Positions 12,821-16,023 of a DNA stretch of 64,000 bases are shown piece by piece; within the stretch, counting starts at the first letter, position 1, and every line of letters begins with the position of its first letter. The notes below the pieces were generated by a model. That model did no database searches. It was not told the origin of the DNA and saw only the letters and a program-made list of their open reading frames with translations. This DNA is from a virus, in IMG/VR virus record IMGVR_UViG_3300045131_002362, positions 1 to 64,000 of that record. One strand, given 5' to 3'. The position numbers and the translations under genes are program-made.

Positions 12821-13375
12821 GTGAACCAGATTTTCCGCATAACCGTCGGGGTTGAGACGCTTCAAGGGCGCCTTCAGGCTGTCCGTGTCGGTAAGGGATA
12901 CTCCTGCATATTTCACATCTCTGGCGTAGCCTACGCCGAAGGTGAAGCCGCGCCCAAAATCTGGATCGGATCGACAGAAGCCGACACGCTTTTTTGGACC
13001 GGTGTTTGGGACAGTGAAAAGGGCGTATGGGTTGTCGCTGTAAATAGTGATGCGAGCGCAACTGTGGCGACGCGCTCCTATGCCCTCACGATGACCGGTG
13101 ACGACGGAACAGGCGAGGGGGTGCGTGAGTACATCGCCGGCCAAGGTCCGTTTACCGTTTACTCCAATATCGCCGGAGGTGGTGCTGAGGGTGGCGACGA
13201 AGGCGAGTCTCTCGGTGAGCAGATTGTTGCGCTAAACGCTCGGCTCCTCATTTTGGAACAGCGCTTTGAGGATCTTGCGACCCTCGGAATGTTTAACGGT
13301 GAGCAAGCCTTCGATCACGAGATGCGCGCGCAGGTCGAGGCCATCACCAACAAGTTGAGGGGGGCACCGTTATGA
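12821..13375 (+). CDS. Hypothetical protein (possible fibre adaptor)
   Basis: GGGGAG SD with GTG; C-terminal coiled coil. Confidence 0.65.
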   Translation: MNQIFRITVGVETLQGRLQAVRVGKGYSCIFHISGVAYAEGEAAPKIWIGSTEADTLFWTGVWDSEKGVWVVAVNSDASATVATRSYALTMTGDDGTGEGVREYIAGQGPFTVYSNIAGGGAEGGDEGESLGEQIVALNARLLILEQRFEDLATLGMFNGEQAFDHEMRAQVEAITNKLRGAPL

Positions 13376-16023
13376 TTTTCAGAATGATTGGCTTTATCGT
13401 AATCTTGGCAAGCTCGTGCATTGCGCAGGAGACCCGCATGGACTGGAAGTGGGGCCGGCCAGGTGTGATGGTCGAAACGAACATTCCGACGACAGTCACA
13501 ATCAACGGCGTACCATGGTGGACTGCTACGAACGGGGCTTTTAACGTGCAGGGCGGCTTAGGGCTGGACTCGCAGGGCGTGACCAACATCTTCAACGGGA
13601 TGATTGTCGAAGCCACCAACGGCTTCGTGACGACCCCCGGCGTGAGCGGCATCGTGAACGCGGCGATCTCCAACCTGCCCCCGTCAGGCATGAGCGCGAC
13701 CGACGTGACCAACATTTCAACGGTAGTCGCAAATAGCATCGTGACGGCGGCGACGAACGCAATCATTCAACCTACCGGTGTTCCTTACTGGATTGGCACG
13801 AACGGCGCCGAGTTCGCCACGCTGGAGCCGGACGCGCAGCCGCTGGTGTGGCGGGTTGAATCAACCAATGTGTGGCAACTGACTGTGACGGAGGCCTTGA
13901 CGGCAGGGGGCACAATATACAAGTCCGTCGGTACGTACGTCTCTGATATGCCGTACCCTATCCAGCCCGGGTCCTGGAACCATATCGGAGCGGTTACAGT
14001 CAATCCTAATGTTGTAGATGTCTGTACCATTCAAGCGTTTTTTGGCGTATTCGATACTGAGTACGACACAGCGATTTCAATAAGCACCTATATCGGTGAT
14101 GCCACAGGTGCAGCGACACTAGTGTATGCACCGGTGATCTACACCAACTACGTCACCCGCCTTGCGGCGACGAACGACCTAGCTGAATTCCTCTCCATCG
14201 CAGATTACGCGTTGTGGCAGACCAACATCCTTGACATGATCCAAGCGATCAGCAACGACGCCTTCAACGCGCAGAGCACAGCGGACGGCGCGAGGGGTGC
14301 GGCGAATCAGGCGGCGCAAGATGCAGGCACAGCGCTCCAGCTCATCAGCGGGGTAGGTGGGCTTGAAGAGCAGATTGACGCCAAGCTGGACGCGACCGGA
14401 GGAACGGCGAGCAATCTCACCGCAGTCGGCACGTTCTCGCTGTTCGGCTATCCGTGGTCTTGGAATCCCGAATTTCATACCTATGACGTGGGCTTGGACG
14501 GCGGGGTCACGGGGCAGCTTTTTCAGGAGCAGCACATCTACGTCAAGAATGGCACAGACGTTCCGCTCACCGAGGGGATGGCGGTTTGCGTCGCTGGCGG
14601 ACAAGGCGCGAACGTAGTTGTCGCTCCTGCCTCCTGTGACTCCCCGATCTGCAAATGGAACACGATCGGTTTGGTTACTCAGACGGGTGGGATCGCGGTG
14701 GGTGAACACGGCTACGTCGTGACCTCTGGAAACATCAACGACCTCGCCGGATATGGTCACTTCGATGTGTCTAATACGCTATGGCTGGCAACATCTGGCG
14801 TGGTAACGAATATCGAACCGGCGGCTGGCTCCGTGGCAGCAAAGGTAAAGATCGGCACCGTGCTGCGCTCACACAACACGCAGGGCCGCATATTCGTCAG
14901 CGTGCTAGCGATACCGAACGCGGCTGACGTTGGCGCGGTGGCGGTGAACAATGGAAGCGGAACGAACCTCACCGTTGCCGGATTGTCAACGCCGTACGGG
15001 TACACGAATAAGTACATGTGCGCGAACGGATCGACGATTTGCGCGAGCATGGCGCTACTTTCACCAACGACCAATTTGCAGATCAAGACGCAAAACGGCG
15101 ACATCCAGATTTCACCGGCTGGCAACATGGGAATAAACGCGACGCCTAGTGCTTCGTATTCGCTCAACTTAGCCAGCGGCATAAATGCAGGCGGAAACGT
15201 GCAAGCCAGCTATTTTGGTACTGGAAACTATGTCCTTTTTTCGACGCGTGGACTTTACCGTGACAGCCAGAACGCCGGTCAGTTTGTTTTCGACACGGCG
15301 GTTGCTGGTGGGGCGAACCCAATAATCCTTGGCAGCGGCGGAACTGGATACAGCAACGGTCAAGTGAACGTCCGGTTGGATGGTCGAAACTATGCGTCGT
15401 TCACCACGAACAAGATATGGTTCGGTTTGAACAGCAATGTCGTGGTGGACATAGAAGGAACGGTATCAGCAACCAACTTCGTATTCACGCGCCCGCGCTG
15501 GATCGACGAAAAGGCGACGGGGCTTTCGTTATCGCCTACTCCGTCCGCAGAACCGCAGCGCATCGAGATACCGGCAGGCAGCGGGGTTCACGCGCTGGCG
15601 TTTTCGATTGGAGACAATGCAGCCGGTTCGCTCCAGTGGCAGCACGGACTGGCAAAGACGAACGCGCTATACCAGAATCTGTACTACAGTCCGCACACGC
15701 ATACGCGAGCGCTTTCAACGGACGGCAACGATACCGCGACGTGGGTTGTCAAATGGCAGGTGGCAGGCGTGAACGGTGCGTACTCAGAAACGCTTGCACG
15801 CACCACGACGGTGACTTATGCGGAGGCGAACACGCATTACATTTGCGACTTCGGAGTTGTCACGAATAATGCGCTGTCTGGCAAGGATTCCGTTATCAGC
15901 CCCTTCACGCTTTACCGCATCGCCGGCAGTAACGAGGTAGCAGCCGACGAGGCCGTTGTTGATAGCATCGACTTCCATATTCCGGTCGCTGAGTACGGCT
16001 CGGTTGTGGCTAACGGCGATTAG
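13372..16023 (+). CDS. Tail-fibre-like protein with N-terminal signal peptide
   Basis: 883 aa, Thr/Asn/Gly-rich; coiled-coil segment; VKNGT..LTEGMAV...IGLV...GYVVTSG domain seen in phage fibre/decoration proteins; hydrophobic N-term ending CIA-QE. Confidence 0.7.
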   Translation: MIFRMIGFIVILASSCIAQETRMDWKWGRPGVMVETNIPTTVTINGVPWWTATNGAFNVQGGLGLDSQGVTNIFNGMIVEATNGFVTTPGVSGIVNAAISNLPPSGMSATDVTNISTVVANSIVTAATNAIIQPTGVPYWIGTNGAEFATLEPDAQPLVWRVESTNVWQLTVTEALTAGGTIYKSVGTYVSDMPYPIQPGSWNHIGAVTVNPNVVDVCTIQAFFGVFDTEYDTAISISTYIGDATGAATLVYAPVIYTNYVTRLAATNDLAEFLSIADYALWQTNILDMIQAISNDAFNAQSTADGARGAANQAAQDAGTALQLISGVGGLEEQIDAKLDATGGTASNLTAVGTFSLFGYPWSWNPEFHTYDVGLDGGVTGQLFQEQHIYVKNGTDVPLTEGMAVCVAGGQGANVVVAPASCDSPICKWNTIGLVTQTGGIAVGEHGYVVTSGNINDLAGYGHFDVSNTLWLATSGVVTNIEPAAGSVAAKVKIGTVLRSHNTQGRIFVSVLAIPNAADVGAVAVNNGSGTNLTVAGLSTPYGYTNKYMCANGSTICASMALLSPTTNLQIKTQNGDIQISPAGNMGINATPSASYSLNLASGINAGGNVQASYFGTGNYVLFSTRGLYRDSQNAGQFVFDTAVAGGANPIILGSGGTGYSNGQVNVRLDGRNYASFTTNKIWFGLNSNVVVDIEGTVSATNFVFTRPRWIDEKATGLSLSPTPSAEPQRIEIPAGSGVHALAFSIGDNAAGSLQWQHGLAKTNALYQNLYYSPHTHTRALSTDGNDTATWVVKWQVAGVNGAYSETLARTTTVTYAEANTHYICDFGVVTNNALSGKDSVISPFTLYRIAGSNEVAADEAVVDSIDFHIPVAEYGSVVANGD

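Follow-up and report, generated by a model that had tools for sequence, protein, structure and literature searches.

Introduction

Among described systems, the general O-glycosylation of Bacteroidota offers the nearest parallel to the pattern reported here. Its three-residue sequon, D-(S/T)-(A/L/V/I/M/T), is enriched in the non-cytoplasmic proteins of one phylum, and this enrichment is described as the signature of the system; B. fragilis does not accept E in place of D, and a review calls the motif the only known such exception for O-glycosylation and gives the transferase as still unidentified (PMC12871550). PglB-type N-glycosylation (D/E-X-N-X-S/T) likewise uses a short Asn-containing motif in proteins that have passed through Sec export. 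For the anammox S-layer, G-T/S-X has been proposed, not Thr-Asn (PMC5088730). A literature search turned up nothing on a Thr-Asn motif, nor on motifs for the glycosylation of proteins in Verrucomicrobia or Kiritimatiellia.

Here we analyse the first 64,000 bases (the window) of the single-contig virus record IMGVR_UViG_3300045131_002362, 86,708 bases long, in which two proteins with predicted signal peptides, P688 and P883, carry a strong excess of the dipeptide Thr-Asn (TN). Like the Bacteroidota sequon, TN is a very short motif that lies above chance in the non-cytoplasmic proteins of one lineage and not in cytoplasmic proteins or in other lineages, and its residues are strict, since neither S for T nor D for N is enriched. 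The two cases differ in the motif itself, in the lineage, which for TN belongs to the Planctomycetes-Verrucomicrobia-Chlamydiae (PVC) group, and in that the density of TN peaks in phage-encoded proteins. Unlike the PglB-type and N-X-S/T sequons, which are not enriched in the TN-rich phage or host exported proteins, TN is. We put at about even the chances that TN is a lineage-specific short linear motif under selection in proteins exported by Sec, and that the exported proteins of this phage are densely loaded with it.

Results

Thr-Asn counts in the phage proteins

Expected TN counts were obtained from composition-keeping shuffles, 5000 per protein. P883, an 883-residue fibre-like protein (positions 13372..16023, plus strand), holds 89 Thr and 66 Asn, with 19 TN and 4 NT against a shuffle mean of 6.66 TN (standard deviation 2.37); neither the 19 TN nor the difference between TN and NT was reached in any of the 5000 shuffles. 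P688, of 688 residues (10684..12750, plus strand), has 64 Thr, 38 Asn, 13 TN and 1 NT (mean 3.53, standard deviation 1.73), and 0 of 5000 shuffles reached 13. These recounts match exactly the by-eye counts of an earlier sequence-only reading of the window, and agree with its view that the asymmetry of TN and NT exceeds composition and with its suggestion of a shuffled expectation as the measure, above which TN clearly lies in both proteins. The excess is real and far beyond chance. TN ranks first of 100 testable dipeptides in P883 and first of 83 in P688, and 391st of 400 in the remaining open reading frames (ORFs) of the 86.7-kb contig; the two proteins carry 32 of the 54 TN found in 91 called ORFs, yet make up only about 6% of the residues.

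The excess is tied to proteins with signal peptides, as the same reading had claimed. The Thr-rich BACON-domain protein of 888 residues (8021..10687, plus strand), whose N-terminus lacks a signal peptide and which serves as an internal negative control, has 102 Thr and 26 Asn, and its 3 TN, the number that the reading had estimated, and 2 NT stand against 3.0 expected. A second negative control, the 1290-residue protein described below, has 0 TN and 3 NT against 3.3. The late region has one more ORF with a signal peptide, its third (175 residues, 18041..18568, plus strand), which contains 2 TN and 1 NT with 0.8 expected and alone is too short for a test. In the 86 ORFs without a signal-peptide flag, some doubtful calls included, we counted 20 TN against 36.3 expected, and 34 NT. 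This deficit contrasts with the host cytoplasmic proteins described below, which lie at 1.0.

A second virus shows the same distribution. L081, the only IMG/VR relative, is a 53-kb viral contig of 39% guanine plus cytosine (GC) in which seven consecutive signal-peptide ORFs together hold 61 TN against about 20 expected (our own sum), five of them strongly rich (9 vs 2.2, 15 vs 4.2, 8 vs 2.6, 12 vs 3.6 and 11 vs 2.4), while the other 19 ORFs hold 17 against about 16.6. The run of seven (3961-10567 of L081) comes after a 429-residue ORF, and a lipobox-type ORF lies at 10932-11330.

P883 and P688 are rich in Thr and Asn, and one short motif pair is repeated in the TN-dense N-terminal third of P883 (residues about 46-56 and 136-146), so that composition, codon or oligonucleotide bias, internal repeats, a hypermutation cassette or wrong gene calls had to be weighed as artefactual sources. 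The shuffles preserve composition, and NT stands at or below expectation. The codons of TN are mixed (ACG, ACC or ACA, then AAC or AAT), and because they vary the signal lies at the level of protein and not of a DNA word; the pattern is also the same at 39% and 59% GC. No direct repeats of at least 40 nucleotides touching 10684-16023 were found, and the reading frames are confirmed by relatives. A diversity-generating retroelement or hypermutation cassette was rejected: there is no template-variable repeat pair at these genes, and no reverse transcriptase among the 28 phage ORFs (about 150 residues or longer, within the 64,000 bases) scanned against Pfam. We regard an artefact of any of these kinds as having a negligible chance.

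Conservation and residue specificity

TN sites are kept across relatives far better than other dipeptides. In the P688 family the retention of TN is 0.64-0.65, where dipeptides as a whole average 0.20-0.22; for the C-terminal domain family of P883 the two values are 0.54 and 0.12. NT is retained at only 0.07-0.10. When the columns with conserved TN are set aside, an excess is still seen in both families (26 vs 16.7 and 273 vs 89). Both the retention and this residual excess point to selection on TN.

The preference is confined to the exact pair. TN alone, among the dipeptides of type T-x or x-N, deviates from its expected count, with an observed/expected ratio (O/E) of 3.13 in the phage families and, in host exported proteins, of 1.93, where SN, TD and TQ stand at 1.01, 1.03 and 0.83. 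SN reaches 1.20 in the two phage families (7 SN and 2 NS in P883; 3 SN and 6 NS in P688), and the SN half of the TN/SN motif proposed by the sequence-only reading is therefore not supported. Around exported TN sites Lys and Glu, and Arg at some positions, are depleted; around cytoplasmic TN they are not. TN sites also shun each other at gaps of 2-5 residues (23 vs 98.5 expected, outside matched domains). A beta register was considered and dropped: even gaps between TN are enriched in 62 TN-rich proteins (338 vs 228), and we do not use this signal because it vanishes outside the conserved domain (199 vs 174, p = 0.33) and in giant PVC proteins (135 vs 147).

Exported and cytoplasmic proteins of host-type genomes

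We sampled 91-400 kb from each of seven genomes and called ORFs and signal peptides by simple rules of our own. In a Kiritimatiellae metagenome-assembled genome (MAG), 68 exported proteins hold 156 TN against 79.9 expected (O/E 1.95), and 166 cytoplasmic proteins 94 against 93.2 (1.01). A Lentisphaerae MAG behaves in the same way, with 84 against 43.8 (1.92) in exported and 48 against 42.1 (1.14) in cytoplasmic proteins, and in these two samples TN ranks first of 400 and first of 399 dipeptides in the exported set. The excess in the Kiritimatiellae MAG is broad, since 85 TN against 52.2 (1.63) remain without the five top proteins. A second Kiritimatiellia MAG, with only 10 exported proteins, gave 1.63 for exported and 1.00 for cytoplasmic proteins. 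Elsewhere the exported proteins show no such excess: 82 against 83.9 (0.98; cytoplasmic 0.75) in a Verrucomicrobiaceae MAG, 76 against 113.6 (0.67; cytoplasmic 1.03) in Roseibacillus and 78 against 76.8 (1.02; cytoplasmic 0.91) in SAR324, with TN at ranks 220, 398 and 171, respectively. In Solirubrobacteraceae the exported ratio of 1.52 (11 vs 7.2) is not significant and the cytoplasmic one is 1.11. The habit of secreted proteins that the sequence-only reading ascribed to some Verrucomicrobia/Kiritimatiellia is thus present in the Kiritimatiellae and Lentisphaerae samples, and it is not general in Verrucomicrobia, being absent from the Verrucomicrobiaceae and Roseibacillus samples.

A general rule that all PVC secreted proteins are rich in TN was rejected, as it fails in the two Verrucomicrobiae-type genomes and in mixed PVC loci for proteins below 1000 residues. 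Pilin-like paralogues were also discarded as the source, with three in the Kiritimatiellae sample and none in that of Lentisphaerae. The exported proteins of this Roseibacillus sample (R. persicicus, G408 C1 1-400000) are in fact depleted in TN, at rank 398 of 399, the opposite of the habit.

The Pfam domains found in the TN-rich host proteins are unrelated to one another: multicopper oxidase with PAP2, beta-helix, subtilase with FG-GAP, HEAT with CBM4_9, SdrD_B and Gly_rich_2. In one enzyme family the motif could be separated from the fold. The N-terminal 440 residues of an exported PAP2-type enzyme of the Kiritimatiellae MAG contain 13 TN against 2.8 expected; the whole of a 460-residue Verrucomicrobiaceae relative, 37% identical and with an equal Thr count, contains 1 against 1.4, and has RD, RD, LE, PT, TD, AS, GQ, VS, RT, FD, EL, -D and TF at the 13 sites. 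An actinobacterial relative has 2 against 0.7. Apart from this, a module of about 250 residues with repeats of FG-GAP type, from a Kiritimatiellae subtilase, matches 65 places in the Lentisphaerae MAG G004 (for example L207-L214); four other genomes gave no match to it at E <= 1e-10.

Domains, relatives and structure of P883

P883 starts with a predicted Sec signal peptide (about residues 1-18, 13372..13425, plus strand), recognised by a heuristic that combines N-terminal positive charge, a core of 8-16 hydrophobic residues and small side chains at positions -3 and -1; we place the cleavage after C-I-A by our own reading. Both P883 and P688 pass this heuristic at their annotated starts and the pattern is conserved in relatives; for P883 the n-h-c arrangement recurs in P0009 and P0090, which share its conserved N-terminus. 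These N-termini indicate that both proteins are probably exported by Sec.

The rest of P883 is modular. After the signal peptide and some 80 conserved residues come a region that P0007 also has, a middle domain (about residues 360-530, 14449..14961, plus strand) common to many phage fibre-type proteins and with one conserved TN (residue 479), and a C-terminal domain (residues 685-883, 15424..16020, plus strand). The sequence of P883 found no match in Pfam, PHROG or PDB. The AlphaFold2 model of the C-terminal domain, with a predicted local distance difference test score (pLDDT) of 90.8, is a ten-strand beta-sandwich, which together with the alignment and Foldseek gives it the look of a carbohydrate-binding module (CBM): the structural matches are to CBM6/CBM4-type modules and to C-terminal domains of tailspikes and fibres, at modest template-modelling (TM) scores of 0.4-0.64, and 81-98% of its ESM Atlas neighbours are from Viruses. 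Beta-helix ladders, which the sequence-only reading had named as a possible source of the TN sites, do not fit this domain, and P883 has no Beta_helix match in Pfam.

As in the tail fibres and tailspikes found by Foldseek (for example K2-2 tailspike 8iq5, lambda gpJ 8xcj, CBA120 TSP4 5w6h), P883 is encoded among the late genes, after a very long tape-measure-like one, and the protein joins a widely shared middle domain to a beta-sandwich tip. Unlike them, P883 has a conserved signal peptide of the cleavable type, and the structural matches are weak (TM 0.3-0.64). Cleavable signal peptides are not known from classical phage tail fibres. Position and modular architecture fit a tail fibre or receptor-binding protein, and the tip is CBM-like with viral neighbours, but the sequence has no match in the databases named above and the signal peptide is atypical.

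We retrieved 145 relatives of P883, with 1238 TN, 516 NT and 578 expected, and the TN excess among them tracks the class that carries the C-terminal domain. The 62 carriers have signal-peptide-like N-termini in 44 cases and TN ratios of 3.84 inside the match and 2.59 outside it; for the 72 proteins with the middle domain only, the values are 11 cases, 1.31 and 1.42. In the C-terminal domain family N80, H91, H93, T147, N148, P187 and G192 (domain numbering) are invariant, H74, T79, D183 and H185 nearly so, and about seven TN sites recur, three of which are kept in P883. Because H91 and H93 are invariant and H74, D183 and H185 nearly so, the alignment suggests that the domain has a metal site. 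H91 and H93 form the invariant P-H-x-H motif of this unnamed CBM-like family, and many of its members are proteins of 200-300 residues that consist of a signal peptide and the domain alone. In a search of 401 genomes of the phylum of G001 and five PVC genomes, weak in that it had no positive control, the domain was not found; one viral and one metagenome locus matched.

This domain raises the question of whether TN simply forms the working surface of these proteins, Thr and Asn binding sugar or metal in receptor-binding modules, so that the motif would belong to adhesion and not to export. The resemblance to CBMs is what one would expect in that case, T79-N80 and T147-N148 are among the most conserved residues together with the His and Asp named above, and P688 is related to adhesin-like giant proteins. 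Such a role accounts at most for a few invariant sites, though: the excess extends to the non-homologous N-terminal parts (the 2.59 above) and to a host oxidase, protease and beta-helix proteins, and a strict adjacency of T and N that tolerates neither S nor D is unexpected for generic sugar-binding surfaces. We think this explanation improbable.

The location of the sites speaks to another possibility, that TN is a strand-edge or turn device of beta-rich extracellular domains which expanded in some lineages and was exchanged between host and phage, with nothing reading it. The model of the C-terminal domain places most of the seven recurrent sites in strand-edge loops. Three of them coincide with the opening two residues of a strand or precede one by 2-4 residues, two fall in loops, one ends a strand that leads into a short helix, and one is internal to a strand. 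For P688 the model is of low confidence (pLDDT 59); in its better parts two TN occupy hairpin connections of two residues each and a third immediately precedes a strand. NG is likewise enriched in the P883 family (47 vs 27.2), and the avoidance at short gaps also suits a turn element. On the other side, about 7 of 20 mapped sites are within 3 residues of a strand start, which is not significant against the roughly 20-24% expected by our own count, and the even/odd spacing loses significance outside the conserved domain. Further, there is no enrichment of SN or TD, which would be the obvious replacements in a structural role; this phage's BACON protein is at expectation; no excess is seen among the proteins that Verrucomicrobiaceae, Roseibacillus and SAR324 export; homologous PAP2-type enzymes aligned along their length differ 13 to 1; and the TN-rich host proteins range from HEAT repeats to enzymes of unrelated domain families. 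Since the placements fit a surface motif and a turn device alike, they do not decide between the two. We hold the structural explanation to be possible but doubtful.

P688 and the giant PVC surface proteins

P688 carries an Asp-rich motif of Ca-binding type at both ends, and over its C-terminal half it shares homology with the C-terminal regions of giant surface proteins from the PVC group. Its full-length relatives are C-terminal modules of giant surface proteins from MAGs labelled Verrucomicrobiota, Kiritimatiellia, Lentisphaerae and Victivallaceae. Relatives of P688 at 33-68% identity have TN z-scores of 2.0 to 6.3, and 28 distant matches with nothing but the Asp-rich motif in common (P0021-P0048) are centred around zero (-1.1 to 3.2). 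Eight TN columns are kept in at least 50% of six relatives. We examined whether the phage clade gained TN absent from its cellular relatives, and this is only partly true: in matched segments the phage-type clade has 40 TN against 12.8 expected and the cellular giant-protein segments 25 against 11.3, often at other positions. The GTNP turn of Asp-rich Ca-binding repeats was rejected as the source of TN, as it covers only about 106 of the 1110 TN in giant proteins and none in P883. P688 has the appearance of an excised C-terminal module of PVC surface proteins of 2400-4300 residues (loci L001-L041), and in the N-terminal Asp-rich repeat its clade has G-L-(R/S)-T-N-S where cellular repeats mostly have G-L-D-P.

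Known sequons and candidate enzymes

None of three known glycosylation sequons is enriched. The Bacteroidota-type pattern D[ST][ALVIMT] occurs 7 times against 6.5 in P883 and P688 together (O/E 1.07), 104 times against 114.8 in host-type exported proteins (0.91) and at 0.96 in cytoplasmic ones, which speaks against substrates of that type of O-glycosylation. The PglB-type pattern [DE]xNx[ST] is below chance in the phage proteins (1 vs 1.4, 0.71) and in host exported proteins (14 vs 21.7, 0.65). The simple NxS/T is found 13 times against 17.1 in the phage proteins and 247 against 245.6 in host exported ones, and is no commoner at TN sites (36 of 248) than at other Asn (211 of 1856). With its sequon below chance and STT3 (PF02516) found in none of five genomes by a search that matched 4 of 14 control genomes, a PglB-type substrate is disfavoured as well; because the five include several MAGs whose completeness is not reported, the absence of STT3 is weak evidence. 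The 28 scanned phage ORFs contained no glycosyltransferase domain. Failure to find an enzyme by homology is not decisive, since the transferase of Bacteroidota O-glycosylation is in the same position.

Gene neighbourhood

GC varies between about 52 and 67% across the window (2-kb windows). On the plus strand, a tape-measure-like ORF of 1290 residues (1976..5848), so called by size and position and without a family match, is followed by ORFs of 463 and 261 residues and then by the BACON-domain gene. P688 starts within this gene, and P883 within a 184-residue ORF (12821-13375) that separates the two; each start overlaps the stop of the gene upstream by 4 nucleotides. Downstream of P883 there are three ORFs of about 210 residues and then the 175-residue signal-peptide ORF, which closes this plus-strand block at 18568. 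The remainder, on the minus strand, comprises replication genes (SNF2 helicase, a DUF5906 helicase-primase-type protein, RecA, a clamp-loader-like ATPase and a methyltransferase). A 153-nucleotide unit is present in two identical tandem copies at the very start of the record (window 1-306), which may be a terminal redundancy or an assembly artefact. Inside the BACON-domain gene, window 8319-8736 contains two 157-nucleotide copies of 79% identity, 261 nucleotides apart.

Discussion

Our results can be accommodated in a simple scheme. TN would be under selection in the Sec-exported proteins of one part of the PVC group, as seen in MAGs labelled Kiritimatiellae, Kiritimatiellia and Lentisphaerae, and phages of such hosts would carry it, at a still higher density, in the proteins that they export. 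P883 would be a fibre-like protein with a tip resembling a sugar-binding module, and P688 a copy of a host surface-protein module. Their signal peptides, which are probably functional, would take both across the inner membrane, where they would meet the same envelope factor as the exported proteins of the host, probably a Kiritimatiellia- or Lentisphaeria-type bacterium. The likeliest factor would be an enzyme that modifies Thr or Asn, for example in a general protein glycosylation with a T-N sequon; a chaperone or a sorting factor is the other option.

Several results weigh against TN being a motif that is read upon export. Gene calls and signal-peptide calls were made with crude heuristics. 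The excess in the Lentisphaerae MAG is narrow, with 31 TN against 25.7 (O/E 1.20) without its five top proteins, and signal-peptide proteins below 1000 residues from mixed PVC loci show none (18 vs 14.5 and 47 vs 46.6). Giant surface proteins of many lineages, some of them Verrucomicrobiae-type, have about 1.75 times the expected TN, and because they share this excess, the families to which proteins belong may account for some of the signal. This milder enrichment of giant beta-rich proteins, and the dependence of the Lentisphaerae value largely on five proteins, would also suit a structural device. The separation of motif and fold comes from one enzyme family, and a blind pair test across lineages (13 pairs) had too few counts (11 vs 8.2 and 7 vs 7.3). 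The two TN of the C-terminal domain that are invariant or nearly so lie beside conserved His and Asp and fit a structural or ligand-binding role too. Finally, STT3 was not found, and enzymes of PMT and PMT_2 (PMT-type GT-C) occur in genomes both with and without the TN habit.

A more specific proposal was put forward from the sequence alone, that TN is the recognition motif of a periplasmic modification exploited by the phage. In the form that our data would allow, T-N would be the acceptor of an undescribed general modification system of the Kiritimatiellia- or Lentisphaeria-type envelope, in the simplest case a glycosylation of Thr or Asn, and the Sec-exported fibre-like and adhesin-like proteins of the phages would be packed with it at about three times chance for decoration by the host. 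We regard this as rather unlikely overall, although within the export-motif reading a covalent modification such as glycosylation is the leading candidate mechanism. If true, the phage proteins would be the densest natural substrates of the system.

If something does read TN, it would be the second case in which the exported proteins of a whole bacterial lineage share a short motif for modification or recognition, and the first in the PVC group. It would provide a simple sequence statistic for predicting the hosts of uncultured phages, assigning the present one to a lineage with the TN habit, and would indicate that fibre-like phage proteins make real use of their unusual signal peptides. Phylogenetic profiling would then be a direct route to the enzyme, since lineages that have the habit are next to others that lack it. 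And if nothing reads TN, it would still be a sharp lineage-specific rule of protein sequence, relevant to structure prediction and design.

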